DNA of 64,000 nucleotides. It comes from a virus. Shown in pieces: positions 3,253-63,387 of the stretch. Both the position numbers and the translations under genes were made by a program. How positions within the stretch are numbered: the stretch's first letter is position 1; each line of letters begins with the position of its first letter. The stretch lies in IMG/VR virus record IMGVR_UViG_2751185817_000001; one strand, given 5' to 3'. The notes beneath the pieces are model-generated. The model worked only from the letters and a program-made list of their open reading frames with translations, ran no database searches and had not been told where the DNA came from.

Positions 3253-6200
3253 TGCACGCTATCCTCGCAGCTCGAACCGACTTCTCTCTGGGCGAAAGCA
3301 TCCTCAATGCAGAGATGCTTGTCGACATCGCCAAGACGCAAGGGGCAAGTGTCGTCGCTATCACCGACACCATGTCCGTCACTGGTCTCGTCGACTTCAC
3401 CAATCGCGCCAAGAAGGCCGAGGTGAAGCCGATCATCGGCGTGCGTCTCCGTCTGTCCGAGGATCCGACCTGGCGCCCGGCCAAGGGTCAGAAAAAGAAG
3501 CATATGCCGCCCGAGCACTTCCTCACGGCTTATGTGCTGTCGGAGACCGGGATGAAGACCATCTACCGGCTTCTCACAAAGGCCAATACAGGCGACTCTG
3601 AGGACGCTGCCGGCAATAAGGTGCCTGGACGCTACTACTACACCGCAAAGCTCGCCTACGACGATCTGTGGGACGAACTGAACGTGATTGGCGCCGGACA
3701 CCTGGCCTTCCACCTCGGTGACACGCACGGCGTCATCATGCGTGCCGATGCCGACGACATCGTCGCCAAGCTGATTGACTTTGCGCACCCGCATTATGTC
3801 TTTGCGCCGCTGATCCCGGTCGACACGCCCTATTTCGGCGCCGTCAACAAACGCTCGGCCGCTCTGATCGCCAAACACGACATTTCGCCGCTCGTGATCC
3901 GCCCCGCCTTCTACGAAGAGGAGCAGGCTGACGCACACGAGGTCATGGGTGCGATCGCCAATGGCAACAAGGTCACGGACGGCTGGCACAAGTCGATGCA
4001 CAATCGCGACTTTCACGTGCTGAAGGCGACCGATCTCGGCAAGGAGGTCATGAAGGCCGCAAAGCACCTGTCGATGCGCGGCATCACAGGCGCCGGCACG
4101 CTGTTCAAGCAAGGGCTCGCCAATACTGACCGCCTGGCAGATATGGTCGAATACGAGTGGTCGAAACAGCCCGTCTCATTGCCGGTGATGGCGCCGGATG
4201 AGTTCGCCAAGCTCGTCGAGGAGTGTAAGGCAGGTTGGAAGGTCCGTTTCAGCCAGGAGAGCTTCGGGCATAAGCCGAGCCAGCAAGAGCTGATCGACGT
4301 CTACAAGCCGCGTCTCGCCTACGAGCTCGAAACCCTCAAGAAGCTGTCATTCGCGGGCTACTTCCTGCTTGTGCAGGACGTGGTGCAGTTCTCCAAACAA
4401 AACGGCATTCTCGTCGGACCTGGTCGCGGCTCTGTCGGTGGCTCGCTCGTCGCTTATCTCATGGGTATCACTGACTGCGATCCGATCCGCTTTGGCCTGC
4501 TGTTCGAACGCTTTATCAACCCCGAACGTCTCGACTTGCCAGACGCCGACTTGGACTTCATGTCCACGCGCCGGCACGAGGTCGTCGAATACCTCATTCA
4601 GAAATACGGCGAGAAGCGCGTCGCCGGCGTGTCGAACTTCGGCACCCTTGCGGCTGCATCCTCGATCCGCGACGTCGGGCGCACCTTCGGCATTCCCGAG
4701 AAGGAATATGCCATCTCCAAGCTCGTGCCGAAAAAGCACGGCGCGAACGTTCCCCTGCCCGAATGCCGCATTGAAGTCGGCGAAATTGACGAGTTCGCTC
4801 ACAAGTATCCGGCGCACTGGGACATCATGGAGCGCATCGAAGGCACGATCCGCAATATGAGCCAGCACGCAGCCGGCATCGTTGTTAGTGAGTGCGATCT
4901 GGTCGAGCGCGCGGTCATTGAGCGTCGAAAAGGCGACTCCGCGGTCGTGTGCTGGGACAAGCGCATCGTTGAGGATCAAGGCCTGGTCAAAATGGACATT
5001 CTGGGTCTGTCGACCCTGGATCTGATCGCCCTCGTCCAGCAATACATCTTCGAGCGCCACGCCAAGAAGATCAATCTGATGAAGGTGCCGCTGGACGATG
5101 AAGCGGTGCTGAAGAACTTTGCCGCGGGTCTGACGACAGGCGTGTTCCAGTTCGAAAGCTCCGGTATGCGCAAACTGCTGCGCGAGCTCGGCGCGGACGG
5201 CTGCATCACCTTCGATGATATCACCGCAGCGACCGCTCTCTACCGACCTGGCCCGATGGAGTCAGGCATGATGGACAGCTATTACAAGCGCAAGCAGGGC
5301 AACGAGACGGTCGACTACGACCATCCGCTGATGGAAGACGTGCTGCGCGAAACATACGGCGTCATCGTCTACCAGGAGCAGGTCATGAAGACCTCGCAAG
5401 TCGTATCGGGCTACTCCGGTGCCGACGCTGACAAGCTCCGCAAGATCATGGGTAAGAAATTGCCCGAAGAGATGAAGAAGGAGCGCGGCAAGTTCGTCGA
5501 TGGTGCGGTCAAGACGATCGGCTGCACAGAGGAGTGGGCCGGCGCCCTGTTCGACAAGATCGAAGGCTTCGCCGGCTACGGCTTCAACAAGAGCCACTCG
5601 GTCGAATATTCGCTGATCTCCTGGCAATCCATGTGGCTGAAGACGCACTATCCGGTCGAGTTCTTTGCCGCTGCGCTGACGCTGATGGACGAGGACAAGC
5701 TCCCTGCCCTTCTGCGCGACGCAAGCCGTTTCGGCATCGACGTGAACATGCCCGATATCAACATTTCGACCGAGAGGTTTGAGATCGTGACCGACGTGCG
5801 CATGGTCATGCCGTTCCAGCGCATCAAGGGCGTGTCTTCGAACACCACGAAAGCCATCCTCGACGCGAGGAACGCGGTCGATCCCACGACGGGCCACCCT
5901 ATCGGCAAGTTCAAGAGCAAGGCTGACTTCCTCGAGCGCGTGAACAAGACCAAATGCAACAAGCGGCATCAGGAGAATCTCGATCTCGTCGGAGCGTTCT
6001 CACGCATCGAGATGAGCCAGGCGCCGGCCAATGATCCGAGCCGCATTCGTGACCAGCTCGAGCTTCTGCCAGGCCTTGTGACGGCGACGGTGCCGGTCGC
6101 GCGCTCGATGGAGCGTGATAAGGCGACGAAGGACGCGATCGCGCAGGTGATCGAGGACTACAAGGGCGAGCTTTCCGAGGATGGCATCATGGTCATGCCT

Positions 6201-6665
6201 CACTTCGGCAAGAGCGCCGAGTTCATGATCATCACGGACGCGCCCAACAACCCGGAAGAGCAGGAAGGCATGATGTCGATCGGCAAGGCGTCGGCGCCGG
6301 TCATCGACGCGCTGATGGTGCATGAGCTCGATCGCAAGACCTTCTACTGGACGGCCATGCTGAAGCGACCGAAGTCCGGCAAGATGATCTCGATGGATGA
6401 GATCCGCATGTATCTGCCCTACCTCGAGCGCGAGATCGATATCCTCAAGCCTCCGATCATCGTGCTGCTCGGCTCGACGATCGTCCGGCACTTCCTGCCT
6501 GACTTCAAGGGCAAGGCGTCCGATGTCGCCGGCAAGATCGTCTACCACAAGGAGCTCGATGCGAATCTGGTGATCGGCTTCAATCCCGGCGAAATCTACT
6601 ATGCACCAGAGAAACAGGAGTTGATGGAAACCGTCTTTGCGTCGGTCGTCGATCTCCTCGACTAG
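3252..6665 (+). CDS. dnaE: DNA polymerase III alpha subunit (family C) with C-terminal UDG-like domain
   Basis: PHP start (ARTDFSLGES, AITD), GPGRGSVGGSLVAY, RLDLPDADLDF, HAAGIV, KMDILGL, GVFQFES, ALYRPGPM, YGFNKSHS; last ~165 aa resemble family-4 UDG. Confidence 0.95.
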   Translation: MHAILAARTDFSLGESILNAEMLVDIAKTQGASVVAITDTMSVTGLVDFTNRAKKAEVKPIIGVRLRLSEDPTWRPAKGQKKKHMPPEHFLTAYVLSETGMKTIYRLLTKANTGDSEDAAGNKVPGRYYYTAKLAYDDLWDELNVIGAGHLAFHLGDTHGVIMRADADDIVAKLIDFAHPHYVFAPLIPVDTPYFGAVNKRSAALIAKHDISPLVIRPAFYEEEQADAHEVMGAIANGNKVTDGWHKSMHNRDFHVLKATDLGKEVMKAAKHLSMRGITGAGTLFKQGLANTDRLADMVEYEWSKQPVSLPVMAPDEFAKLVEECKAGWKVRFSQESFGHKPSQQELIDVYKPRLAYELETLKKLSFAGYFLLVQDVVQFSKQNGILVGPGRGSVGGSLVAYLMGITDCDPIRFGLLFERFINPERLDLPDADLDFMSTRRHEVVEYLIQKYGEKRVAGVSNFGTLAAASSIRDVGRTFGIPEKEYAISKLVPKKHGANVPLPECRIEVGEIDEFAHKYPAHWDIMERIEGTIRNMSQHAAGIVVSECDLVERAVIERRKGDSAVVCWDKRIVEDQGLVKMDILGLSTLDLIALVQQYIFERHAKKINLMKVPLDDEAVLKNFAAGLTTGVFQFESSGMRKLLRELGADGCITFDDITAATALYRPGPMESGMMDSYYKRKQGNETVDYDHPLMEDVLRETYGVIVYQEQVMKTSQVVSGYSGADADKLRKIMGKKLPEEMKKERGKFVDGAVKTIGCTEEWAGALFDKIEGFAGYGFNKSHSVEYSLISWQSMWLKTHYPVEFFAAALTLMDEDKLPALLRDASRFGIDVNMPDINISTERFEIVTDVRMVMPFQRIKGVSSNTTKAILDARNAVDPTTGHPIGKFKSKADFLERVNKTKCNKRHQENLDLVGAFSRIEMSQAPANDPSRIRDQLELLPGLVTATVPVARSMERDKATKDAIAQVIEDYKGELSEDGIMVMPHFGKSAEFMIITDAPNNPEEQEGMMSIGKASAPVIDALMVHELDRKTFYWTAMLKRPKSGKMISMDEIRMYLPYLEREIDILKPPIIVLLGSTIVRHFLPDFKGKASDVAGKIVYHKELDANLVIGFNPGEIYYAPEKQELMETVFASVVDLLD

Positions 6666-6723: not shown

Positions 6724-7266
6724 ATGAGTGACGATACAGAAGCAGAAAAGAAGGCGGTCGCCAAAATCACGGTGCGGAACTACGTCGACACGGCTGAGCT
6801 GAAGAAGGATCTCGGCTACACACTTGTCGATATCTCCGGCGCCCAGGCCGAGCAGGCGCAATTGTTCGCCCACTACGGCGTCCAGGCAGCCAAAGCCGCG
6901 CGCCAGGTGGATAATATCAAGCTGCTGCTGGAGAACGCCGAGGCGGCTGTCTATCGCGTATTGCGCGACAAGATGGTTGCGGCCGGCGAGAAGGTGACAG
7001 AGGCGCTGCTCGACAAGTTGGTGACGCGCCACGAGCGTGTGACTGCGGTCAAGAAGGCGCTCAATGAGGCCAAGCAGATCGAGGCGATCGCAAAGACCGC
7101 GGTTGAGGCGTTCCGGCATCGAAAGGACATGCTTGTGCAGCATGGCGCAACCGAGCGCGAGGAGATGAAGGGCGAGCTTGTGACGAAGCTGCGCTCGAGC
7201 CGTGAAGAGGATCTGACGAACCTCAAGGAAGGCTACCTGAAGCGCGTCGCGCAAAACGCCGCATAA
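6724..7266 (+). CDS. coiled-coil protein, possibly a UvsY-like recombination mediator
   Basis: GGAG RBS; helical heptads; position between polymerase and SSB; UvsY similarity is only an impression. Confidence 0.6.
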   Translation: MSDDTEAEKKAVAKITVRNYVDTAELKKDLGYTLVDISGAQAEQAQLFAHYGVQAAKAARQVDNIKLLLENAEAAVYRVLRDKMVAAGEKVTEALLDKLVTRHERVTAVKKALNEAKQIEAIAKTAVEAFRHRKDMLVQHGATEREEMKGELVTKLRSSREEDLTNLKEGYLKRVAQNAA

Positions 7267-7301
7267 ATTTTACGCAATCCGTCTGTTTTTCAGCTATTCA
7301 A

Positions 7302-7325
7302 CAGTCAGTCAATATTGACTGACTG
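7302..7325. promoter_or_regulatory. operator-like motif, perfect 24-bp palindrome
   Basis: CAGTCAGTCAATATTGACTGACTG, directly after GCTATT. Confidence 0.85.
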
Positions 7326-7344
7326 GAACACACAGGAACCCCAG

Positions 7345-7581
7345 ATGAGCAAGTTTCTCCAGAAATTCCGCACCATTTTCCGCCGCGACCGTTCGGTTGA
7401 CACGATCCTCAAGCCGCTGACCAAGATCTCCAACGATCTCGCCCAGCACGAGCAGGAGCAGCTTCGCCGCGCCGACGCCAAGCGCGTCGCTGCCAACAAG
7501 GCTCTGTCCGCTGAAAACGACGCACGCGACGCCGCTGTCCGCGCTGCCGAAAAGCGCGCCAAGCTCTCGGTTTTCGCCTGA
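7345..7581 (+). CDS. small coiled-coil hypothetical protein
   Basis: AGGA RBS; follows operator palindrome at 7302. Confidence 0.6.
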   Translation: MSKFLQKFRTIFRRDRSVDTILKPLTKISNDLAQHEQEQLRRADAKRVAANKALSAENDARDAAVRAAEKRAKLSVFA

Positions 7582-7711
7582 AATAATCCTCGAGATTTTT
7601 CGCGCAACCCGATGAAAAGCTGACTATTCTATTCTTAGCGATTTAGCGAAATCGCTAAGTCGAAAAGTAGCAAAGCACCAACCTACCAGCCTACGAAAAG
7701 GAAAAATCGAT

Positions 7712-8641
7712 ATGGCACTCTCTCCCGCACTGCAGAAGCTCGTTTCCCAAGGCGCAAACAAGTATTCGCGCTCCACTGGCGAGCGGATCAAGCCGAAGGA
7801 AGGTATCAACCGATACCGCGTCCTCGTGCCTGATGTGAATGCCCAGTTCTGGGCCGACCTCGGCGTCCACTGGATCAAGCCCGAAGTCGAAGGCAAGGCC
7901 AAGCCCATCGCCGTCGTCGGTTGCCCCGACGTTTGCTTCCAGCAGCCGTGCGAAATCGACACCGCGATCAACGAGGCGATCTCGTCCGCGATCGACGAAG
8001 ATTCCAAGAAGCTCTACGAGTCCTGGCGCGCTCGCAAGACCGTTCTCCTGAATGTCCTCGATCGCTCGAAGGGCTCGACTGATGTCGACAAGGTCCAGAT
8101 CCTCGAGATCACGACCGGCACCTTCGGCTCCATCCTGAATATCATTCAGCAGTATGCCGAAGAAGGCGAAGACATTCTCGACGCAGCAGGCGGCATGGAT
8201 ATCGCGATCACCCGCACCGGCAAGGGTCTCCAGACCGAATACGCCGTCAATATCGCGCCTGGCGCTTCCAAGCCGGTCACGAAGCAGCATCTCACCGACT
8301 GCCACAACCTGACTGACCACATCAACAAGGAGTTCTTCAAGGGCGACGAGAAGAAGGCCTTGAACTTCATCAGCCAGGTGGCTCAGGTTTCGCTCCCGCG
8401 TCTCGCCTCGAAGACGCCGACCGCAGCGCTGACCTCGCGTGCGGCCCAGGTCGACCCGGAAGTCGATGCTGACGCACTCGCTGACGCGCTCGATCTCGAA
8501 GAGGCGCCGGCTGAAGAAGCGCCGGCTCCCGTCAAGACTGCTGCTGCAACCACTTCGTCCGCTGCCCCGGCTGAAGAAGTCGAAGTCGCCCTCGACGACA
8601 ACGACCTCGAAGACGTTCTGGCAGACCTGGACAACATCTAA
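7712..8641 (+). CDS. single-stranded DNA-binding protein (gp32-like)
   Basis: RYRVL...FW..LGVHWI, C/C zinc-like residues, DI.ITRTGKGLQTEY, long acidic C-terminal tail; replication context. Confidence 0.7.
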   Translation: MALSPALQKLVSQGANKYSRSTGERIKPKEGINRYRVLVPDVNAQFWADLGVHWIKPEVEGKAKPIAVVGCPDVCFQQPCEIDTAINEAISSAIDEDSKKLYESWRARKTVLLNVLDRSKGSTDVDKVQILEITTGTFGSILNIIQQYAEEGEDILDAAGGMDIAITRTGKGLQTEYAVNIAPGASKPVTKQHLTDCHNLTDHINKEFFKGDEKKALNFISQVAQVSLPRLASKTPTAALTSRAAQVDPEVDADALADALDLEEAPAEEAPAPVKTAAATTSSAAPAEEVEVALDDNDLEDVLADLDNI

Positions 8642-8645
8642 GTCG

Positions 8646-8760
8646 TCACTGCGCCGCGCGTTAGAGCGCAGTGATCTCGTGCCTGGCAAGTCGCGCTGCC
8701 AGGCACGTTCGTCAGGAGGCCGTGTTTCTGTCTCCTCGTTCCGCTTGCGGCCTCCTGACG
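8646..8760 (+). other. three consecutive stem-loops in the SSB to exonuclease intergenic region
   Basis: 8646-54/8666-74 (9 bp), 8678-88/8697-8707 (11 bp) and 8710-22/8748-60 (13 bp) are perfect inverted repeats. Confidence 0.8.
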
Positions 8761-8790
8761 CTCCTATTCTCCAAAATTCAAAGGTTTGAA

Positions 8791-9750
8791 ATGTCCAGGT
8801 ATCTGCTGATCGACGGCATGAATATTGCTCATGCGGCCAACAACTCGAAGATCCTCACGGTTGGCAACACGCAGGTTCAGGCAATCTACCACTTCATCAA
8901 GATCGTCCGAAAGCTCGTCGCAGCCTACCCGACCGCAAAGCCCGCGGTGCTCTGGGATGGCGCGTCCTGGCGCTACATGGACTATCCGGACTACAAGTCC
9001 AACCGCAAGAAGGAAGACACCCCGTCCGCGATCAAGGCTGCAGAAGCGAAGAAGGCCGCTGAAAGCCAGATCCCGGCGATCAAGAAGGCAATGCAGCTCA
9101 TTGGCATGCCCCAGGTGCGCGCTTCGAATATGGAAGCTGACGACCTGGCCGGCATCATGGGTGATCGCTACGCCGGCAAGGGCGCAAAGGTCATTCTCGT
9201 CTCGGGCGACAAGGACTGGGTGCAGCTCGTCAATCAGAACATCATCTGGTTCGATCCGATCCGCGACCGCAAGATCATGAAGCCGGCCGACATGCTCGAC
9301 GCGCTCGGCTACGATCTCGAAAGCTTCGAAGCATTCCTCGAAATGAAGTGCCTGATGGGTGACACCGGCGATGGTATCGGTGGCGTCGGTGGCATTGGTG
9401 ACAAGGGTGCGATCGAGTTCCTCAAGGCGTATGGCTCGACAGTCAACTTCTCCAACATGCTGCTCGACAAGACGCTTGATCCGAAGAAGGTGCCGAAGAA
9501 ATATCGCGACTTCGCTGAGAGCGAGGACAAGCAGATTATCTTCCGGCGCAATCGCAAGCTGATGGATCTGCGCACGCCGCTGCGTCCCGAGCCCGTCAAT
9601 CTGAGGGTTGATAGCGGCGAGCCCGACATCGAGCGCTTCCGCACCTTCTGCAACCGACTGATGTTCCGCTCGATCACAAAGGATCTCGAGAGCTGGGTAT
9701 CGGTGTTCCCCGCATTCCATCACCTACAGGAGGAGCTCGCAGCCGCATGA
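8791..9750 (+). CDS. 5'-3' exonuclease / RNase H (PolA N-terminal, T4 rnh-like)
   Basis: LLIDGMN, VLWDG..WR...YPDYKSNR, MEADDL, VSGDKDWVQL, LMGDTGDGIGGVGGIGDKGA. Confidence 0.92.
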   Translation: MSRYLLIDGMNIAHAANNSKILTVGNTQVQAIYHFIKIVRKLVAAYPTAKPAVLWDGASWRYMDYPDYKSNRKKEDTPSAIKAAEAKKAAESQIPAIKKAMQLIGMPQVRASNMEADDLAGIMGDRYAGKGAKVILVSGDKDWVQLVNQNIIWFDPIRDRKIMKPADMLDALGYDLESFEAFLEMKCLMGDTGDGIGGVGGIGDKGAIEFLKAYGSTVNFSNMLLDKTLDPKKVPKKYRDFAESEDKQIIFRRNRKLMDLRTPLRPEPVNLRVDSGEPDIERFRTFCNRLMFRSITKDLESWVSVFPAFHHLQEELAAA

Positions 9751-10539: not shown

Positions 10540-11643
10540 ATGGCATCAGCAGCAGATATCGCAAAGAGCCTCGCCGGCGCGATCGGAGCCAACGACGAGG
10601 AAGTGACTGTCTCGCAGTTCCTCCCCTCGGGGTTCCCGCCTCTCGACCACGCATCCAATTCGAGCTGGGATCTCGGCGCCTTCCCGGTCGGCCGCATGAT
10701 TGAGATCGCCGGCCCTCCCTCCTCCGGCAAGACCGCGCTCGCAACGGCAGGCATGGCCGGCGCACAGAAGATGGGCGGAATCGCAGGCTTCATGGATCAT
10801 GAACGCTCATTCTCACTGCGCCTGGCGCCGCGCCTCGGCCTCGACACCACGCCTGGTCGGTTCATCTTCAAGACGCCGAAGACCTTCGAGGAAAGCCTTC
10901 AGATTTGCGTCGTCGCGGCCAATCACGTTCGCAAGAACAAGTTGATCGCGAAGGATGCTCCGATTTGCTGGGTGTTCGACAGTCTGGCTGCGATGGTGCC
11001 GCAGTCGGCTTACTACGAAATGAAGGCGGGTAAGGTCGTCGGTGTAAAGTCGCTCGAGGACCGCAACATGAACGACAATACGGCGCTCGCGCGTGCGACG
11101 TCGAACGCCTTCCCGGCCTTCGCTCAACACTGCGAGGATCTCGGCATCTGCGCCATCTTCCTCAACCAGATGCGCACCGACCTTAACGTCAAGTTCGGCG
11201 ATCCGCGCAAGACGACCGGTGGTAACGCGCCCGAGTTCTACTTCTCGCAGCGCCTCTGGCTGTCGGCATCGCAGATCAAGAAGGGCACCGACATTATCGG
11301 CATGGAAGTGACCGGCAAATACAAGAAGAACAAGATTGCGCGTCCGTTCCAGGAGGCGAGCTGGCGCTTCGAGTTCCAGGAAGACGGCACTGGCAAGTTC
11401 AACCGCTTCCGCTCGCTGATCGAGTTTCTCGAGGGGCTCGACCTGATCAAGAAGGGCAAGCAGACCGGCACGGTCGAATGGGATGGCAAGACCTACCCGA
11501 AGGCCACGCTCTCCAACACCCTCGAGGCCGAAGGTGACAAGGGCTTTGCCAAGCTGACGGCATTGCTGCCGGCGAACTACGAGCCGCCTGTTGTCGCCGA
11601 GATCGACGCTGAGATCGACGAGGACGCGGCTATCGCGGCGTAA
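10540..11643 (+). CDS. recA: RecA/UvsX recombinase
   Basis: GRMIEIAGPPSSGKT Walker A, VFDSLAA Walker B, IFLNQMR, FGDPRKTTGGNAPEFY. Confidence 0.95.
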   Translation: MASAADIAKSLAGAIGANDEEVTVSQFLPSGFPPLDHASNSSWDLGAFPVGRMIEIAGPPSSGKTALATAGMAGAQKMGGIAGFMDHERSFSLRLAPRLGLDTTPGRFIFKTPKTFEESLQICVVAANHVRKNKLIAKDAPICWVFDSLAAMVPQSAYYEMKAGKVVGVKSLEDRNMNDNTALARATSNAFPAFAQHCEDLGICAIFLNQMRTDLNVKFGDPRKTTGGNAPEFYFSQRLWLSASQIKKGTDIIGMEVTGKYKKNKIARPFQEASWRFEFQEDGTGKFNRFRSLIEFLEGLDLIKKGKQTGTVEWDGKTYPKATLSNTLEAEGDKGFAKLTALLPANYEPPVVAEIDAEIDEDAAIAA

Positions 11644-11719
11644 TTTCGCGATTTAGCGTTTTCGCTAGCGTCTCCGATGAAAATCAGTCTATTCAAGATC
11701 AAATCATCGGAGACGCATC

Positions 11720-54399: not shown

Positions 54400-55440
54400 G
54401 GTTGACAGCGGTTGACACGAAAACAGCCATATTTGTCTAGTGAGCATCTCATTTAGGCGTCTTCCGTTGACGTAAGTTTACGCCAGGTTGACAAACGCCC
54501 TCCCAAATTAAAATTTTCCCTCTGTCAACCAAATCGCAGCTCATCTCCAGCGAACACCAAAACGCTCAGAGAAGCGCACAGACTCGCTCCAGAAGCGTAA
54601 GCGATCAGAGAGACGCAACAACTCACCCAACACACTCAGCAAGCAATCTCGTCAACGCTACACGCTAGACCAACGCACAGAGCGCAACACTCGGCCAGAC
54701 AACGCGCGAAAGACAGAAAGCAGACACACCACGGCTCACTAGAGAGACAGCACACCTAGAGAGCACGCATGAGCCTATAGAGCAGATCATGGTGTATGTG
54801 AGAGACAGCACCGGTGTGTAGGTGAGTAGTAGAGAGCGCAGATGCGTGTGGAGTGTGTAGATCGTAGAGAAGATAGGAATCGTAGCGAGTGGGTGGGTGT
54901 GCCGCGCCATGCCTTCTACTCCTCTTACAATCCTACACCGCCCTACCCTTCCTCACCACGCCAGCATGAGCCGCGCTCAGCCGTCTTCAACCCCAACAAC
55001 TCAGCGTTATCTTCAATTTTACGCAAATCACACGCGTAGCAGGCGATCGTCCGTCGTTCTGTTGGTTACATGCAGCGTGATCGCCAGCGACAGCGGTCCT
55101 TCTCTAAGGCGGGTCATGACGACTCGCCTTTCTTTTTGTCCTCGAAAATCCAGGAACCAGGCGCGTCCGCTCCATAAGACGGAAACCGTGAACCAATACC
55201 GATCGAGCGGCCGAGCCATGGAGAAACCGTGCCAGGCCGGAGGAGATCCATGGAGAGCCGCGGAAGACCATGGGTGCGCCGTGGCTAGCCGGGAGCCGTC
55301 GACCATGGCGAGAGGAGTCTTCACGCCGGAGAGTGAGCAATCCGGTCCGTCTCCCTTCTTAGTTTATATTCTCTATTACAGTAGTATCTATACATAGAAG
55401 GGAGACGGCACGGAACGTGTCAGAATTGTGATCTCTCCGG
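54400..55440. other. about 1 kb non-coding region, candidate replication origin or packaging region
   Basis: No credible ORF; GGTTGACA repeats, strand-skewed TT-free tract, CCATGG cluster, nested inverted repeats around an AT-rich core. Confidence 0.5.
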
Positions 55441-55557
55441 CTTGAAGCGTGCCGACCTTCGCCTGCCCTATCCAGATTCTCTGCCTACTGAAGACGTGAG
55501 ACTGTCTGTTCATCGAAAGCGAACGACTTTCCGATCAACGTCAACAGGAGACAGACA

Positions 55558-56253
55558 ATGGCGAAGCAGTCCACCAACGCACCGGCCGGCAAGCAGTCCA
55601 ACACGAACGAGGCCGCCTACATATTCACGGACGCACTCAAGGCACACGGCGACGACGAGGCGAAAGTCTTTGCTCTGAAGATCGGTGCCGCCTTCGATGA
55701 GCGCGTCCAGTTCGAGATCAGCCGCAAGGCAAGCGGCTCGGCCGACATGCCGAAGGTGAAGAAGCTCAACAGCTACCGTGGCAAACTGGCGCTGCCGAGC
55801 ATGGCGAAAGTGCTGATGGAGCTCAAGATCTCCGAGATGTTCATCAACACGCGCCAGGGCAAGGAGACGGACGGCGATCGCTTCAACATCTACGCCATCG
55901 ACAAGGTGATCGACTTCGTCCGGGCGCTCGCCGGACAGCAGAAGCTCTCCAACGCGCACAACGTCGCCATTGCGAAGTCCATGCTGATCTTCGAGGAGAA
56001 CGGCAAGACATTCACCGGCGAGATGGCGATGTGTGCCGCGTCCGACAAGATCCGCAGCCAGAACCCGGATGCAAAGCTCTTGCGGCGCCACAACGTCGAC
56101 AAGTCCACTGCCGGCACGCAGGCATCATCCACGCTCAATGCACTGATGGCGCTCGGCCTGGTGAAGAACACCGGCACGAAGCGTGCTGCGACCTACGTCT
56201 TTGCCAACACCAACCAGGCGAAAGCCTTCAAGGAGCTGCTGCAGGCTGTCTGA
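55558..56253 (+). CDS. putative winged-helix DNA-binding protein
   Basis: AGGAG RBS; C-terminal STAGTQASSTLNALMALGLVK helix-wing pattern. Confidence 0.7.
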   Translation: MAKQSTNAPAGKQSNTNEAAYIFTDALKAHGDDEAKVFALKIGAAFDERVQFEISRKASGSADMPKVKKLNSYRGKLALPSMAKVLMELKISEMFINTRQGKETDGDRFNIYAIDKVIDFVRALAGQQKLSNAHNVAIAKSMLIFEENGKTFTGEMAMCAASDKIRSQNPDAKLLRRHNVDKSTAGTQASSTLNALMALGLVKNTGTKRAATYVFANTNQAKAFKELLQAV

Positions 56254-56278
56254 GGAGCAGCGCACCAGGTAAGGCGAG

Positions 56279-56306
56279 AGGGCGGAGTTTAGGCTCCGCT
56301 CTTTCA
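56279..56306 (+). terminator. intrinsic terminator
   Basis: AGGGCGGAG/CTCCGCTCT stem with TTT. Confidence 0.65.
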
Positions 56307-56563
56307 TTTGGGTGTGGGCTGTCCATGGGGAACCAAGGCGAGTGCAGGTGAAGGTTGGGGAACCGGTGGGGTCCAAGGGACCGGGCGACCGTGAAACCAT
56401 GGCGTTCCTGTCCGCACCATGGCAAATCCATGGACCGGTCCGTCCTCCTTCAGGCCATGGCGGGTCCACGCTTCGCCAGGCCGGTGTGCATGCCAGTCAA
56501 TTCCTATTGATCGCCGTAGCGAAATCGCTAAATTGCTATTTATCGAAACAGCGAGAGACGCAC

Positions 56564-56908
56564 ATGACGATCATAGCCTACGCAGACGCCACAAAGATCA
56601 CGCTCGAGGAAGAGGCAGCTCGCTGGCGCGCATTTGAGGCGTGCACTGAAGATGGTGAGCACGTGACGGATCTCGCCGCGCTCGAGGCACTGATCCGCGG
56701 ACAGAGCGTTGTCATGGAGAAGGTGGCGCAAGTCAGTCACGGAGGTCTTCCTTACGTGGAGTTGCTCGGCATCACGCCTGTCGACAGTCCAAACAAAGCC
56801 TTCCTCTGGATCTCGCTGTGCAAAGGCGTCGATTGGATGGAGTGCTGCATGGCGCAAGAGTTCGGCGCCGCGGACTTCCTGGATCAGCAGACTTACAATG
56901 CCAGATAG
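56564..56908 (+). CDS. hypothetical protein
   Basis: ATG 56564 after TAGCG motif and GCTATT. Confidence 0.65.
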   Translation: MTIIAYADATKITLEEEAARWRAFEACTEDGEHVTDLAALEALIRGQSVVMEKVAQVSHGGLPYVELLGITPVDSPNKAFLWISLCKGVDWMECCMAQEFGAADFLDQQTYNAR

Positions 56909-56977
56909 CGCCAGATTGCGCGATTTCGCTAAATCGCTAAACTCGAAAGCGTCAACAACGAACGAAGCGAGTTCAAC

Positions 56978-57154
56978 ATGCACACCATCATTCCGGCGCC
57001 GACGACCGTCATTCGCATCAAAGAGATGACGCCGCGGCAGTCACACCTGGCGCAGCAGACGCTAGCGCTCGCCAAAGACACGTGCGCCTTCATTGCGATG
57101 ATCGTCTTCGTCTGCGCCGTCATCGCGCTCTGCATCATGATCAAGACCAGCTAG
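56978..57154 (+). CDS. 58-aa membrane peptide (below ORF-track cutoff)
   Basis: MHTIIPAP...CAFIAMIVFVCAVIALCIMIKTS; followed by a terminator. Confidence 0.55.
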   Translation: MHTIIPAPTTVIRIKEMTPRQSHLAQQTLALAKDTCAFIAMIVFVCAVIALCIMIKTS

Positions 57155-57170
57155 CAAAGGAGGATCTCGA

Positions 57171-57200
57171 ACGAGCCGGCGCGTCGTGCGCCGGCTTTTT
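57171..57200 (+). terminator. intrinsic terminator
   Basis: AGCCGGCGC/GCGCCGGCT stem with TTTTT. Confidence 0.8.
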
Positions 57201-57450
57201 CGTGTGCGCTTGCGATCCATGGCGCCCCTCGGCGCCCCTCGTCTACAATTTTAGGAACCGAGGCGAATGACGCCATATAGTGCCATCCTCCGGCGAGTCC
57301 CTCAGCGCGCCTCCTGACGTTCGCCTGTTAGCATCTGCTACATCACGTCGCACTACATTAGTGCACGCTTACACAGTGCGCACTGCATTAGCAGACACGC
57401 AAAAGCGCGCTATCTCTAGCGCGCTCATATTAGCGATTTAGCGATTTCTT

Positions 57451-57657
57451 CTATTCGCTATAGCTTTCGTTCTGACGCATATTCAGCATTTCGAATATGT
57501 CGCTTTGCTGATAATCGAAGCGACGATCTAGCAGCTCAAAATGAGCACTCTCTAATACGCGCTTCGCTTCGCGTCGTTTCTGTCTGTCACGCATTTCGCG
57601 CTGTGTGAGTGATACGCGCATAGTCGAGTAACTCTTGCTCATGTCTCTAGCTTTCAC
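57451..57657 (-). CDS. small basic protein with no Gly/Pro/Trp
   Basis: 68-aa ORF coupled to upstream ORF inside the island. Confidence 0.6.
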   Translation of the reverse strand: MKARDMSKSYSTMRVSLTQREMRDRQKRREAKRVLESAHFELLDRRFDYQQSDIFEMLNMRQNESYSE

Positions 57658-57848
57658 TTGTAACGTGCTACAAATCGACGACGTTCGTCTCTGACGCGCT
57701 TCGAGCGCATGCGCTTAGTCTGACGCTCACGCAAAGCGCGCTGCAGTGAGCGATTAGCGTCGCGCGAATTTGTGAGTGCTGCATACATGCGAAGAATGAA
57801 AATAAGCATCGTCTTAAACTCTCGTCTGTTGATACTGCTAGCGCGCAA
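57654..57848 (-). CDS. small Arg-rich protein with no Gly/Pro/Trp
   Basis: 64-aa ORF downstream of operator at 57863; true start may be the internal ATG (MLIFIL). Confidence 0.55.
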   Translation of the reverse strand: MRASSINRREFKTMLIFILRMYAALTNSRDANRSLQRALRERQTKRMRSKRVRDERRRFVARYK

Positions 57849-57862
57849 GATACGCGCTAGCT

Positions 57863-57882
57863 AAATCAATGTTGATTGACTG
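57863..57882 (-). promoter_or_regulatory. operator-like motif inside the CC/GG-free island
   Basis: Minus strand cagtcaatcaacattgattt. Confidence 0.7.
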
Positions 57883-57884
57883 TA

Positions 57885-58466
57885 TTACGCAGTCAAACGC
57901 GCTTCGATTTTCTGCATGATCTCGTTATCGTTGACAGTATACTTGTCTTTTGAAACAGACTTCAAAAGATTGAGTGCAACAAGAGCACGCATATTCATAG
58001 ATGCGTGACGCTTTGCAGATGAGAAGACGTCTTTGCGACGAAAATACAAGTGTTGACGCTCTTTCGCGACTTTAATATTCTTGTCGAGCGCGATTTCAAT
58101 GTCGCTTGCGCTGAATTGTTCGTTCGCTTTCTTGAAATTAACGAGCGTGCGCAACGTTTCTTCAACGTTTGACTTCAGCTTGTCGACGTTGCGTCGATCG
58201 ACTGCAAATTCGAGAATATGAGCGCAATTCTCAAGTGCTTTCATGCAAAACGCGCTGTTAGCTTGAACACTGTCTTGCGCGAAGTCTGTCTTTACTTCAC
58301 ATTTCTTCAGCATTTCAGCAACTGCGTCTTGCTTGACAACAAGAGCGCACTTAGCAATGAAGTTTAACGAGTTAGTAGACTTCTCGTTCTTCAGTTCTGC
58401 GTCGTAGCGTGCAGAGAGAGAAAGAGCGTAAGCGTTGATTACTACTTCAGTCATAACGTGTCTCAC
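57885..58466 (-). CDS. putative winged-helix DNA-binding protein with no Gly/Pro/Trp; resembles 55558
   Basis: 193-aa ORF; colinear similarity to the 55558 protein by eye. Confidence 0.75.
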   Translation of the reverse strand: MRHVMTEVVINAYALSLSARYDAELKNEKSTNSLNFIAKCALVVKQDAVAEMLKKCEVKTDFAQDSVQANSAFCMKALENCAHILEFAVDRRNVDKLKSNVEETLRTLVNFKKANEQFSASDIEIALDKNIKVAKERQHLYFRRKDVFSSAKRHASMNMRALVALNLLKSVSKDKYTVNDNEIMQKIEARLTA

Positions 58467-58913
58467 TTTCGTTTAGTTGTTTCGTTGTCGTTGTTGACAT
58501 GATCACTAAACACTAGTTCGAAACGTCTGACAATAGCTAAATCGCTAAATCGCGAATTATTTTTGAGCAATGCATAAGTCATTGCTGATTTGCTCATAGC
58601 AGCACGTAGAGCGTCACTGACACGCATAGACGCGTTTGCGCTGTCACTTAAGCGCGCATGTCATGCGATCGATCCCTCGTCGATCTGTGAGCGACTGTGA
58701 GCGTGTTTCGATTGAGAGAAGCGAAGTCTTAGAAAATTTGACGTAGTGCGAACATGATGCCCACTGCTGCCCGAGCAATTCCCGGCCTGGACTACCTCTC
58801 CTCGTGCCTCACCGGGACGGACAAGTTGACCTGGGTAGTTCCCGTTCCCGGCGCCCCCTCTCCCCTGCCCCGCAGCCCGGATTCCCTTGCTCAAAACTAC
58901 CCATCCCAACGGT

Positions 58914-58933
58914 AAATCAATATTGACTGACTG
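58914..58933 (+). promoter_or_regulatory. operator-like motif
   Basis: aaatcaatattgactgactg. Confidence 0.7.
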
Positions 58934-58985: not shown

Positions 58986-59732
58986 ATGCAGATCAATTTC
59001 CCCGAGCGCGGCGAAGTTCTTTACGCACGCGGCTCTGACGAGCGCGTGCGTTTCATCACCGCGCCGCTTCAGGCTGAGTTCGCGCTTGCAGCAGGACCGC
59101 TCGCGATCTCGATCGGTCAGCCCTACGCGTTGCGCGACCAAGGTGGCACCGAGCTCCTCTACCGTCTGCATGAGGTCTATCTGCCGTGCGACGCTCCTGC
59201 TCGTGGACGGGGCGAACTGATCAGCATCAGCCATTTCGAGCCGAACGTCATCTCGACTGTCGAACACGACGCCAAGATCTCCGTTGCCATCGACACCGCC
59301 TTCGAGGCTGGTCGTCAGGTTGCCGCACAGGAAGCTGATGAGGCTGAAGTGGAGCGGATCGAGGCTCTGGCTGACGCCATTGACTACTTCGACGAGCCTG
59401 CCGACGTGGTCATCACCTTCGCCGACGGTGACGAGTTCATCATCGAGGGCGCTCTGGGCGTGATCGAGGAAGACGGCAATCTCGCTGTCATCAACGCAGA
59501 CGACCAGTTCGTCGGTATCAACCCCTCCTGGCGCGGCTTTACCGTAGCAGAGATCGCCGAGGACGATGACGTCGAGTTGTGCCCGGTCGAAGAGGCCGTT
59601 GCTACTGCTGATGACAGCGCTGCCAAGGGTGAAGCCGCTGACTGCGATTGCGGCGTCTGTGAAGCTGCCCGCGAAGACGTGAGCCCGACTGCCGGCTTCG
59701 TGCCGACGCATCTCGTCTTCATGGTTCGTTAA
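58986..59732 (+). CDS. acidic hypothetical protein
   Basis: ATG 58986 after operator at 58914. Confidence 0.7.
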   Translation: MQINFPERGEVLYARGSDERVRFITAPLQAEFALAAGPLAISIGQPYALRDQGGTELLYRLHEVYLPCDAPARGRGELISISHFEPNVISTVEHDAKISVAIDTAFEAGRQVAAQEADEAEVERIEALADAIDYFDEPADVVITFADGDEFIIEGALGVIEEDGNLAVINADDQFVGINPSWRGFTVAEIAEDDDVELCPVEEAVATADDSAAKGEAADCDCGVCEAAREDVSPTAGFVPTHLVFMVR

Positions 59733-59764
59733 GTCGCGAAATCGCTAAAGCAAGGTATCGCTAA

Positions 59765-60223
59765 ATGTCAAACAAGACCTATCCCTACGGCCTTCCCCTG
59801 GAAGGCATACCACTGGCCGGCGCGATCGGCGAGCTCAAGGCGGAGAAGATTCCGGCAGGTTCCATCCTGCCGGGCGTCGCTCCCCTGCCCGAGACCCACT
59901 GGACGGCGCTAACCGACGGCGCCGGCACGACTACTCTCACCATCGATCCGTCCAAGCTTGTCGCGCACAGGATCCAAGGGCTGCCCGTCGCCGGCTATGA
60001 GCCGGAGGTCGACGCCTGGAAGGTTGAGATGGTCAACGAGAACAAGATCCTCGAAGAGCGGGTTCTGCGTCGCGTCGATGAGCACGTTCGTAACCGCGAC
60101 AGCCAGGAGATCGACCAGGCCTCGGTGCAGATCGCCCGTCGGCACGTCGAGGATGCTTTCTATCGCCTCAACCGAGCCATTATGCATCCCAAGCGCATCG
60201 CTCTGCCGGAGGACGCAGCATGA
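59765..60223 (+). CDS. Acb2/Tad1-like hairpin protein (putative signalling-nucleotide sponge) with N-terminal extension
   Basis: GLPVAGY...VNENKILEERVLR...QIARRHVEDAFYRLNRAIMHPKR two-helix pattern like Acb2 (IKGYRDL...N..K...[21 protein letters not shown]). Confidence 0.6.
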   Translation: MSNKTYPYGLPLEGIPLAGAIGELKAEKIPAGSILPGVAPLPETHWTALTDGAGTTTLTIDPSKLVAHRIQGLPVAGYEPEVDAWKVEMVNENKILEERVLRRVDEHVRNRDSQEIDQASVQIARRHVEDAFYRLNRAIMHPKRIALPEDAA

Positions 60224-60799: not shown

Positions 60800-61030
60800 A
60801 TGAAAGCTTTTATGTTCGGCTTCAAGGAAGGCATCCACCTGTTCTTCCGCTTCGTGCGCCATGTCGTCGCCTTCCTTCTGCGCCTGGTCGTCTTCCTGCT
60901 TTGCGTCGGTGCTGCAGCCGTCATCGCCGCGGGTTTCTTTTCGATCGGTATTCCGCTGCTTCTGCTGGTCGCGCTTGCCTTCGGACTCTCGACGCTCGGC
61001 TCGCGTATCGATCCGCGGCGCCGCATTTAG
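60800..61030 (+). CDS. membrane protein
   Basis: GAGG RBS; two hydrophobic segments. Confidence 0.6.
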   Translation: MKAFMFGFKEGIHLFFRFVRHVVAFLLRLVVFLLCVGAAAVIAAGFFSIGIPLLLLVALAFGLSTLGSRIDPRRRI

Positions 61031-61043
61031 CGATATCGCTAAA
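61026..61043. promoter_or_regulatory. perfect palindromic copy of second motif (TAGCGA/TCGCTAAA)
   Basis: TTTAGCGATATCGCTAAA, next to the partition operon. Confidence 0.7.
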
Positions 61044-61055
61044 GCACGAAATAGG

Positions 61056-61084: not shown

Positions 61085-61393
61085 TTATCTCGGTGCCTGT
61101 CTCGACTGGATCCAAGCGTGGAAGGCCTCCTCGAGCAGATCCTTCATCGATAAGCCGGCTGCCGCGGCTGTCATCTTGAACCGGGCGTGAAACTCCGGAT
61201 CGACCTTGAAATTCAGGTCGCGCAGAGTCTTTTCATCCATGTTGTTGGCAGTAAACGTCGGTTGCTCAGTCAGCGCGCCCAGGAATTTCATGGCCTGTGG
61301 CTTTTTGCGCACTGCTGCCTTGGTCGGCGCGCCGGTTGCCTTAGCCGGTTCTGCGGCTGTCTCTACGGCATTCGTGGTTTCTGGCTCTTTCAT
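61085..61393 (-). CDS. ParG-like ribbon-helix-helix partition protein
   Basis: Flexible N-terminus then LNFKVDPEFHARFKMTAAAAGLSMKDLLEEAFHAW; coupled to parA. Confidence 0.8.
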   Translation of the reverse strand: MKEPETTNAVETAAEPAKATGAPTKAAVRKKPQAMKFLGALTEQPTFTANNMDEKTLRDLNFKVDPEFHARFKMTAAAAGLSMKDLLEEAFHAWIQSRQAPR

Positions 61394-62034: not shown

Positions 62035-62223
62035 TCGCGAAACCTCTATCTCGTTAATTCGCTAAATCGTTAGCGCCTAATGGTTAACGAAATTTTACGA
62101 GTCGGGGAAGAGGGAGGCGACGCGGCCCATTTGCGTCAACAACGAACCGACACAACCTAACGGAAGCGATTTCTAGGGCCGCGCCAGACCCGTAGATAGG
62201 CCTTCGGCGCGACCAGGGCAAGA

Positions 62224-63171: not shown

Positions 63172-63213
63172 TGCACAGGAGCGATTTATGGAAGGAGCGA
63201 ATTAGCGTTTTCG

Positions 63214-63387
63214 CTAATTCTCCGGGCCCAGAAGCCCGCGAACCTTGGCGCGTTCGACCAGGCGCTCGAGCCGCTCGTTCTCCTTGCGGAGATCTTCGAT
63301 AACCTCGAGATAGAAGCTCTCGGTCATTGCCGAGAGCCCGCAGGTGTTGAAGAAGTGGATTGCGATCTCGCGTTCTTTCTCGGTCAT
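63214..63387 (-). CDS. small hypothetical protein
   Basis: GGAAGG RBS; ATG 63387 overlaps helicase stop. Confidence 0.55.
   Translation of the reverse strand: MTEKEREIAIHFFNTCGLSAMTESFYLEVIEDLRKENERLERLVERAKVRGLLGPEN

Follow-up and report, generated by a model that had tools for sequence, protein, structure and literature searches.

What keeps a stretch of phage DNA free of every CC and GG? The question is raised by a 1.35-kb locus, called the island here, in IMG/VR virus record IMGVR_UViG_2751185817_000001, of which we analyzed a stretch of 64,000 nucleotides (the window). The window belongs to a Rhizobium phage-plasmid of the roughly 115-kb RHEph10/pLM21S1 type (PMC4447125, PMC5537653, PMC7969092, and annotated relatives), a type with RepC, ParA and ParB-like proteins and a lambda-like tail. 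An original prediction, made from the letters of the window, had singled out the island and offered three explanations, namely a segment that is injected or expressed first and has been purged of a host-defense target, virion DNA modified at CC and GG, and exclusion of a phage protein that binds CC..GG sites. Our follow-up indicates that the purge is real, that it is maintained by selection on nucleic acid throughout a superfamily of phage-plasmids, and that the island may be the first DNA exposed in the infected cell, at one end of a direct terminal repeat.

A stretch without CC or GG

A programmatic scan of the window located one long interval without CC or GG, bounded by CC dinucleotides at 57324-25 and 58674-75 (gap, 1350), and a shorter free interval behind it:

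57326-58673: core CC/GG-free stretch, 1348 bp, GC (guanine plus cytosine) content 45.5%; 0 CC/GG against 139.8 expected, unique among the dinucleotide steps
58677-58759: continuation of the free zone beyond a lone CCC, from the same scan; the CCC reads GGG on the minus strand and is conserved in the closest relatives

After the lone CCC (58674-58676), 83 further bases, up to 58760, lack CC and GG (gap 58675-58760, 85). The interval itself, the CCC with about 80 free bases behind it and a GC content of about 45 to 50% had all been described in the original prediction and were borne out. The expectation rests on the island's own composition (315 C and 299 G among 1348 bases) and corresponds to a chance probability of about e^-140. 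The runner-up CC/GG gap in the window is 85 bp, and the longest gaps for the other nine complementary dinucleotide steps are 48 to 160 bp, except for the rare TA at 454 bp. The flanks of the island hold 36 and 57 CC/GG per 300 bp, the window as a whole has a GC content of 58%, and outside the island CC/GG occurs about once per 8 bp. The dinucleotides are therefore missing only locally, as target sites are in DNA of the T5 first-step-transfer (FST) type.

Selection at the level of nucleic acid

The island encodes three proteins:

57885-58454, minus strand: gene A, 189 aa, a predicted helical domain and C-terminal winged helix (model pLDDT [predicted local distance difference test] 89), no Gly, Pro or Trp
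57654-57809, minus strand: gene B, 51 aa, basic, accessory (absent from the relatives RHEph10, RHph_Y2_11, RHph_N1_10 and L008)
57451-57642, minus strand: gene C, 63 aa, basic in its N-terminal half and acidic in its C-terminal half

Given that CC and GG are absent, the island proteins are written without glycine, proline and tryptophan, which had been claimed for three minus-strand open reading frames (ORFs) and holds for all of genes A, B and C. The purge is not confined to codons. Codon junctions carry 0 CC/GG against about 40 expected, a zero never reached when codon order was shuffled, and the 430 non-coding bases carry 0 against 43.5 expected, such that codons, codon junctions, promoter, leader and terminator are all covered. 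Since junctions and non-coding DNA are purged too, the constraint acts on DNA or RNA and not on protein, as the original prediction had argued.

A CC or GG would arise from 26% of the point mutations possible in the island. Between the window and its relatives, 320 to 510 island positions differ, and still the relatives hold only 0 to 9 CC/GG, which means that a filter was active throughout their divergence. Genes A and C are themselves under purifying selection (dN/dS, the ratio of nonsynonymous to synonymous divergence, 0.05-0.3; gene A, 0.05-0.29), and their synonymous sites are saturated between clades (dS >1). Sequence comparison thus points to continuous purifying selection on nucleic acid as what keeps the island CC/GG-free.

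Conservation among related phage-plasmids

In all relatives checked, the island homologue has no CC/GG or almost none; these relatives include RHEph10, the RHph phages, B1VFA, V1VFA-S, X66 and metagenomic lineages, at loci of 38 to 61% GC. In the complete genome of RHph_N1_15 (116.7 kb), it is the only CC/GG-free region of its kind. The gaps (the largest, where there are several) and the counts for three gene A orthologues are as follows:

RHph_N1_15: largest gaps 1150 and 154 bp
RHEph10: largest gaps 549, 424 and 159 bp
RHph_Y2_11: largest gaps 888 and 164 bp
RHph_N1_10: largest gaps 840, 154 and 152 bp
L010/L011 (metagenomic): gap of 1465 bp, zero sites
L008 (metagenomic): largest gaps 722, 236 and 107 bp
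L016: gap of 1352 bp
L017: gaps of 707 and 364 bp
L018: gap of 1046 bp
L019: gap of 930 bp, at a locus of 38% GC
B1VFA: gap of 851 bp
RHph_X66: gaps of 432 and 336 bp
L014 gene A orthologue: 0 CC/GG against 58 expected
L013 gene A orthologue: 4 CC/GG against 70 expected
L015 gene A orthologue: 15 CC/GG against 79 expected

Strict zeros over 0.9 to 1.5 kb are common among the islands. Relatives with normal CC/GG content in the orthologous genes, which the original prediction had named as grounds for giving up its claim, were not seen; the purge is kept. Syntenic gene A orthologues at merely 25 to 35% identity also lack Gly, Pro and Trp, and IMG/VR contigs of distant gene A family members carry the same island. 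A profile search collected the gene A family in 261 clusters at 50% identity, and composition was counted in the best 150. The three residues are entirely absent from 64 of these 150 clusters, and 13 more have one to three; longer family matches (250-400 aa) have normal composition. Homologues of gene A lie on 115- to 117-kb contigs of Rhizobium and Pararhizobium assemblies, one of them a complete plasmid of 115,652 bp, and the superfamily consists of phage-plasmids of roughly 110 to 125 kb.

Synteny of the island holds across the superfamily, with a UvsW-like helicase, two ParB_N proteins and ParA as its shared neighborhood. Independent isolates from Mexico, Argentina and Canada carry the island, as do JGI, ENA, Logan and NCBI assemblies, and given this recurrence we rejected an assembly artifact. 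We likewise rejected a foreign moron or horizontally acquired island on the basis of this synteny, motifs found throughout the phage genome and a paralogue of gene A in the neighborhood. The earlier view that the segment is native, which had rested on operator motifs, is supported by the motifs and the paralogue alike.

Three lineages (L012, L015 and L028-L030) have a relaxed purge and are still about 10-fold depleted. Their genes hold 8 to 15 CC/GG each, and the gene A protein is free of Gly, Pro and Trp in L015 and nearly so in L012. These lineages are natural experiments on what enforces the rule. Across 15 islands (17.2 kb in total), there are 77 CC/GG dinucleotides, or leaks, which show no preferred flanking context and no strand bias. 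One leak, at GAC|CGT, is common to four relatives spanning a dS of 0.5 to 0.9 and is therefore not rapidly erased.

This persistence bears on a mutational origin, in which a cytosine deaminase with CC context, acting on DNA that is often single stranded (through transcription or resection of a terminal-repeat end), would erode CC and GG while the proteins adapt. Such an origin would fit the drop in GC content from 58 to 45.5%, the hit on both strands and the existence of relaxed lineages. It is at odds with the lasting leak, with the base-sharp start of the free zone, and with the composition of the island, in which the strong enrichment of CG and GC (observed/expected, 1.76 and 1.88) contrasts with only 1.09 to 1.16 for TC, CT, GA and AG. 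We consider it very unlikely.

Avoidance of restriction sites or CRISPR protospacer-adjacent motifs (PAMs) in general is hardly credible as the source of the purge. Loss of CC and GG does remove GC-rich sites as well as CC and NGG PAMs, and these phages purge whole words elsewhere. Expected counts of GTAC are 92.6 for the window and 119 for RHph_N1_15, yet neither has a single copy, and the loci of B1VFA and X66 lack it as well. The window is also without CAGCTG and CCCGGG, and RHph_N1_15 is without TGGCCA. The lineage thus appears to answer DNA-targeting pressure by purging words, with GTAC and CAGCTG as examples of classic genome-wide restriction-site avoidance. Within the island, however, palindromes without CC or GG are over-represented (four-base palindromes, 134 against 82 expected; six-base, 35 against 19.6; GCGC, 28 against 3.9), such that general restriction avoidance is largely refuted there. 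The leaks show no context preference, and loss of PAMs from about 1% of a genome protects nothing unless solely that part is exposed. The CRISPR PAMs, Ssp CCA site and restriction sites named as targets in the original prediction are not supported by these results.

The second of its explanations, that virion DNA is modified at CC and GG and that the cassette must stay unmodified for host RNA polymerase, would account for a per-site rule at the duplex level and for the exemption of the remaining genome. We found no methyltransferase, TGT/DpdA, glycosyltransferase or similar modification enzyme in the annotated relative or, by Pfam, among 40 ORFs of the window, and pLM21S1 was reported to lack a DNA methyltransferase (PMC5537653). 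This leaves virion modification a slim chance.

Organization of the island

On the minus strand, the order of elements is the boundary element described below, a 200-nt leader with one conserved GGG, two ATTTAGCG repeats, promoter, gene A, a hairpin, gene B, gene C, a AGCGCGCT hairpin terminator and an inverted ATTTAGCG copy:

58536-58558, minus strand: two ATTTAGCG operator repeats ahead of the predicted promoter, from a motif scan
58505-58558, minus strand: predicted promoter (-35 TTGTCA at 58533-58528, 17-nt spacer, -10 TTTAGT at 58510-58505), from a consensus reading
57835-57862, minus strand: GC-alternating hairpin between genes A and B, adjoined by a motif of the phage-wide AGTCAATATTGACT type at 57864-57877
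57401-57450, minus strand: predicted intrinsic terminator (AGCGCGCT stem at 57401-57425, then a T run), from the sequence
57428-57450: inverted ATTTAGCG operator copy, its arms 95% complementary and 1091 nt apart

The purged zone corresponds to one predicted transcription unit and ends 10 to 130 nt past the terminator; the same terminator follows gene A in B1VFA. In this clade, the free zone also takes in about 200 nt of DNA ahead of the predicted promoter. Relatives do not conserve the 54-aa ORF that precedes gene A, and the stretch was therefore taken as leader or regulatory DNA. The ribosome-binding site of gene A is GA-rich and without GG. In the leader, the CCC/GGG triplet (58674-58676) lies 85 to 140 nt from the boundary and has homologous sites in L001-L004, L008, L014, L016 and L017; it appears as GGGATCGATCG in close relatives. 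This triplet is the sole tolerated exception and may be a functional site.

Gene A is the one gene that is present and purged in every lineage. In other lineages, the position of gene C is taken by unrelated small acidic proteins of 58 to 99 aa, and given that these are CC/GG-free as well, the rule applies to the unit and not to one gene. The AlphaFold2 (AF2) model of gene A contains a helix-turn-helix and a beta-hairpin wing, and its residues 80 to 193 align to many winged-helix domains (Z 5.6-7.1), so that gene A is predicted to be a winged-helix DNA-binding protein. A Foldseek search of gene A against the PDB gave no match at E<=0.001, a PDB sequence search gave no specific relative, and structure searches of AFDB and Atlas returned only uncharacterized look-alikes. 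Searches of Pfam, PHROGs and PADLOC matched the island proteins to no family, including known Acr, other anti-defense or Aca families, and Rfam found nothing between positions 55 and 60 kb of the window.

The motifs that the original prediction had read as the phage's own, at 57863, 57430 and 58534, do belong to genome-wide families. Sites like AGTCAATATTGACT number 22 in the window against 1.1 expected. These palindromic sites are spread over 531-63168 (for example at 7307, 13411, 36181 and 58915), mostly ahead of rightward operons, and the motif looks like a dispersed promoter/operator family that recalls the scattered C1 operators of P1. The ATTTAGCG repeat has 22 matches in the window, one of them 19 bp upstream of parA, and its 8-mer stands in direct and inverted arrays at about a dozen loci:

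7633-7660, 11643-11665, 56519-56541, 56915-56942 and 57428-57450: ATTTAGCG arrays
58536-58558, 59728-59750, 61025-61052, 62053-62067 and 63200-63214: further ATTTAGCG arrays

The arrays suggest an operator read by a ribbon-helix-helix regulator, for which the ParG-like protein (61085-61393) and gene C are the candidates. Given that both motif families are phage-wide, the island is tied into the regulatory circuits of the phage itself.

The boundary element and a probable terminal repeat

In most of the 17 lineages inspected, the free zone opens at a bipartite element, GGCATCCCC-N19-TCTAAGACTTCG, with variants in L015 and L017 and no copy on the L016 contig. Its spacer keeps a constant length of 19 nt, even at the 38%-GC locus, and the start of the free zone is base-sharp at the element, which is single-copy both in RHph_N1_15 and in the window:

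58722-58761, minus strand: boundary element, GGCATCATG (58761-58753), N19, TCTAAGACTTCG (58733-58722); candidate genome terminus or terminase site

We rejected a sigma-54, extracytoplasmic function (ECF) or sigma-70 promoter at this element on spacing (GG to GC one base short; spacers of 20 or 15 nt). We read the element (GGCATC..-N19-TCTAAGACTTCG) as a candidate genome terminus or terminase site.

The coincidence of the free zone with one transcription unit, from a sharp 12-mer start to an end just past the terminator, could also reflect an agent (RNase, ADP-ribosyltransferase or deaminase) that acts on CC and/or GG in the single-stranded mRNA or melted DNA of transcription and during whose activity the island must be expressed, be it terminal or not. 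Just beyond the zone, the GGCATCCCC half of the element abounds in CC and GG, and the phage carries RtcB. Dinucleotide-specific RNA modification exists in phage defense, given that CmdT ADP-ribosylates GA in single-stranded RNA (PMC11618068). An agent at the RNA level should, however, purge one strand's word, whereas CC and GG are both absent and the leaks have no strand bias. The roughly 200 free nucleotides upstream of the predicted promoter and a 12-mer whose spacing is unlike that of a standard promoter also speak against this explanation, which we regard as unlikely.

Fixed termini with a direct terminal repeat have been reported for two relatives, with repeats of 3,605 bp in B1VFA and 3,939 bp in V1VFA-S, a difference of 334 bp (Gunathilake et al., PMC12509600). 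We aligned these two genomes around gene A over a 12.4-kb region and give positions in the B1VFA locus. The offset between them is about 806 upstream of 5602, 0 over 5602-6442 (which includes the element at 5731-5770 and gene A), constant at 334 over 6922-9376 owing to an extra V1VFA-S gene after gene A, and 344 from 9377 onward. Within this region, a single type of interval fits 3,605 bp with 334 more in V1VFA-S, namely one that starts at 5602-5771 and ends at 9207-9376. The free zone of B1VFA starts at 5756. A repeat that started at the 12-mer (5759-5771) would have its other end at 9364-9376, directly before the indel breakpoint, and composition in B1VFA changes at this inner end. There, V1VFA-S has a 10-bp duplication (CTCGACG-containing; L031 at about 9711-9720) that B1VFA lacks (L032, 9377), and composition shifts from G-rich to CA-rich repeats; a similar switch occurs in the window near 54,900. 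The sequence records of the two phages do not begin at homologous points, that of B1VFA beginning between a dUTPase-region gene and tRNA-Cys, and record coordinates therefore do not give the termini.

Taken together, the published repeat lengths and the alignment place the repeat from the boundary element through gene A and its paralogue:

54900-58740: putative direct terminal repeat, extrapolated from B1VFA; right end at the boundary element, left end about 0.7 kb upstream of the paralogue start codon

The island is thus most likely the end-proximal part of a terminal repeat, with gene A predicted to be transcribed inward from the DNA end.

A possible role in first-exposed DNA

We favor the hypothesis that the island is a stealth pre-early cassette at the end of the terminal repeat, purged to avoid a target at CC:GG, and put its probability at about 0.5. 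The island would be the end-proximal 1.4 kb of the repeat and thereby the first DNA, with the first genes, to be present in the infected cell. It would work as a self-contained leftward operon with a ATTTAGCG operator, a sigma-70-type promoter, gene A, small basic and acidic proteins and an intrinsic terminator. The first-exposed DNA, and possibly its transcripts, would offer no CC:GG target to some factor, and this protection would last until the products of the operon act and the remaining genome has entered or is protected. The cassette would then function like T5 FST DNA or the leading end of T7, at the resolution of a dinucleotide, and the cost of stealth would be proteins written without Gly, Pro and Trp. 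Given that only a first-entering segment needs to be target-free, a terminal position explains why purging 1% of a genome can matter.

Several observations are consistent with a stealth cassette, including the predicted inward transcription of gene A, the purging of GTAC and other words by the same lineage, the dinucleotide specificity of CmdT and an adjacent putative anti-defense gene of the Acb2/Tad1 type. Of the first explanation in the original prediction, the part that made the island a first-injected or first-expressed segment gained support from the repeat boundary at the island edge and the single-copy element there, and the part that named its targets found no support. What the cassette would evade may be a system of a new kind, a host immune enzyme or a phage-delivered one that destroys or blocks host DNA, acting at every CC:GG step, from which the superfamily hides its first-entering operon; we place this somewhat below an even chance.

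A number of points weigh against the hypothesis. We know of no factor that reads CC:GG, and DarT1 was set aside as a GG-reading enzyme, given that no consensus motif is reported for it. First entry of the island end is a step that we infer, and the terminal repeat of the window phage is an extrapolation from a sister lineage. A net indel of 334 bp could be a coincidence, with the repeat in another part of the genome, and the length given for V1VFA-S was taken from coverage, PhageTerm having been inconclusive there (PMC12509600). Only about a quarter of the putative repeat is purged, and contig ends near the island (L011, L012, L016, L026, L029 and L030) are scattered. A homologue of T5 A1 lies at 50.7 to 52.5 kb in RHph_N1_15, about 40 kb from the island. 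Such elements also live as plasmids (PMC4447125), and a role in the prophage state would need no terminal position.

The gene A paralogue and CCWWGG arrays

A paralogue of gene A lies within the putative repeat, between arrays of CCATGG:

55558-56253, plus strand: gene A paralogue, 231 aa, found with hhalign; normal composition (82 CC/GG; 13 Gly, 4 Pro)
55216-55308 and 56323-56460, with a single CCATGG at 57217: CCATGG arrays flanking the paralogue

The relationship was recovered by hhalign (probability 91.8%, E 7.5e-7, 171 columns) and missed by BLASTP (E = 1). The CCATGG/CCWWGG clusters, with a spacing of 10 to 40 bp, reach the 3' edge of the island, as they do in L014 and L017-L021. The arrays are conserved across the superfamily, even at the 38%-GC locus, and are candidate iterons, centromere-like sites or packaging-related sites.

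These arrays bear on the third explanation, in which the phage's own winged-helix protein, the paralogue or gene A, nucleates on CCWWGG arrays and covers CC/GG-containing DNA, so that the island is left as an open, transcribed window, for example in a silenced plasmid prophage. Arrays stand on either side of the paralogue and reach up to the island at its 3' edge in the window, L001, L014, L017, L018, L019, B1VFA and X66; gene A is paralogous to the array-flanked gene; its fold resembles winged-helix proteins that bind centromeres or iterons, such as TubR (weak Z); and the trait is kept at loci of 38 to 61% GC, which favors a co-inherited agent. Yet avoidance of a 6-bp site, or spreading from it, needs no full removal of CC and GG, and strict zeros are common. 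The arrays lie on one side of the island only, there is no precedent for a protein that reads one dinucleotide step, and in L028 (with L029/L030) the purge is relaxed even though L028 keeps its arrays. The conserved arrays at the island edge thus lend something to the idea of a CC..GG-binding phage protein and L028 detracts from it; overall, we think it improbable.

Neighboring genes and sequences

The rightward operon that diverges from the island includes the following gene:

59765-60223, plus strand: Acb2/Tad1 hairpin-domain gene, 152 aa with an N-terminal extension (PF24729, E 1.3e-9, 38.5 bits against a cut-off of 27)

Its family comprises sponges that counter CBASS and Thoeris, and the family is also found in relatives, which carry a Tad2-like protein near the ParB genes as well. 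Between the island and the rightward promoter, positions 58761-58915 are conserved and extremely G-rich on the minus strand, with runs that fit a G-quadruplex motif and a conserved block TGTCCGTCC.GG...GAGGAGAGGTAG; the plus strand, C-rich and G-poor, resembles a Rho-loading site. Some 1.3 kb upstream of the island, the B1VFA/X66 group has tRNA genes (L020, 2468-2705; L021, 2252-2500), for Met, Asn and either Trp-CCA or a pseudo-tRNA with anticodon CCA. The large terminase has relatives in Jersey/Chi-like siphoviruses, with partial T5-like matches.

Implications and comparison with known systems

That a natural, deeply conserved operon uses a reduced DNA alphabet marks selection on nucleic acid very strongly and cleanly, and the purge implies a dinucleotide-specific factor beyond described defense, modification or takeover systems. 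Recoding the island would offer an experimental handle on the host or phage gene that penalizes CC and GG. Functional winged-helix proteins can, by the same token, exist and evolve without Gly, Pro and Trp, which is relevant to protein design. Screening the sequences of uncultured phages for long gaps in a single dinucleotide is a simple way to find their first-exposed DNA. Should the terminal position be confirmed, the T5 first-step-transfer principle would extend to alphaproteobacterial phage-plasmids, and if the favored hypothesis is true, stealth pre-early DNA could be a general phage strategy and a handle on dinucleotide-reading factors and on how first-step-transfer DNA survives. We found no description of the purge in papers on these phages.

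Among known systems, the FST (pre-early) DNA of T5 comes closest. It lies in a terminal repeat, carries the first genes, is transcribed inward by host polymerase and lacks certain restriction sites that are missing there only; the leading end of T7 enters by transcription. The island would resemble both as a putative short leading-end or terminal-repeat segment, with the repeat boundary mapping, as far as B1VFA can be extrapolated, to its edge. Unlike in T5 FST DNA, the purge concerns one dinucleotide step and is complete over about 1 to 1.4 kb, forcing proteins without Gly, Pro and Trp. The gene content is unrelated as well, with a winged-helix protein and no family match that would correspond to the T5 takeover proteins A1, A2 and dmp; the A1 homologue is elsewhere, and these phages are also plasmids.

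Genome-wide restriction-site avoidance likewise counterselects short DNA words, and the same phages practice it on GTAC. The island purge differs in being local and in concerning a dinucleotide instead of a 4- to 6-bp site, and other palindromes are enriched inside it; palindrome avoidance of the classical type is thus seen for GTAC and CAGCTG across the genome and not in the island. The CpG footprint of ZAP and the TC/CC footprints of APOBEC3 are left by dinucleotide-directed antiviral factors, to which viruses respond by depletion. Together with CmdT, these factors establish that a defense can read a dinucleotide and that viruses deplete it. Those depletions are partial, genome-wide and strand-specific, whereas the island has lost CC and GG absolutely, in one place and on both strands alike. 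None of the known systems compared here combines a complete, local and strand-symmetric removal of one dinucleotide with the loss of three amino acids. The known kind to which the island would belong is target-word avoidance in first-exposed phage DNA, and there is a substantial chance that the system that enforces it is a categorically new, dinucleotide-reading one.

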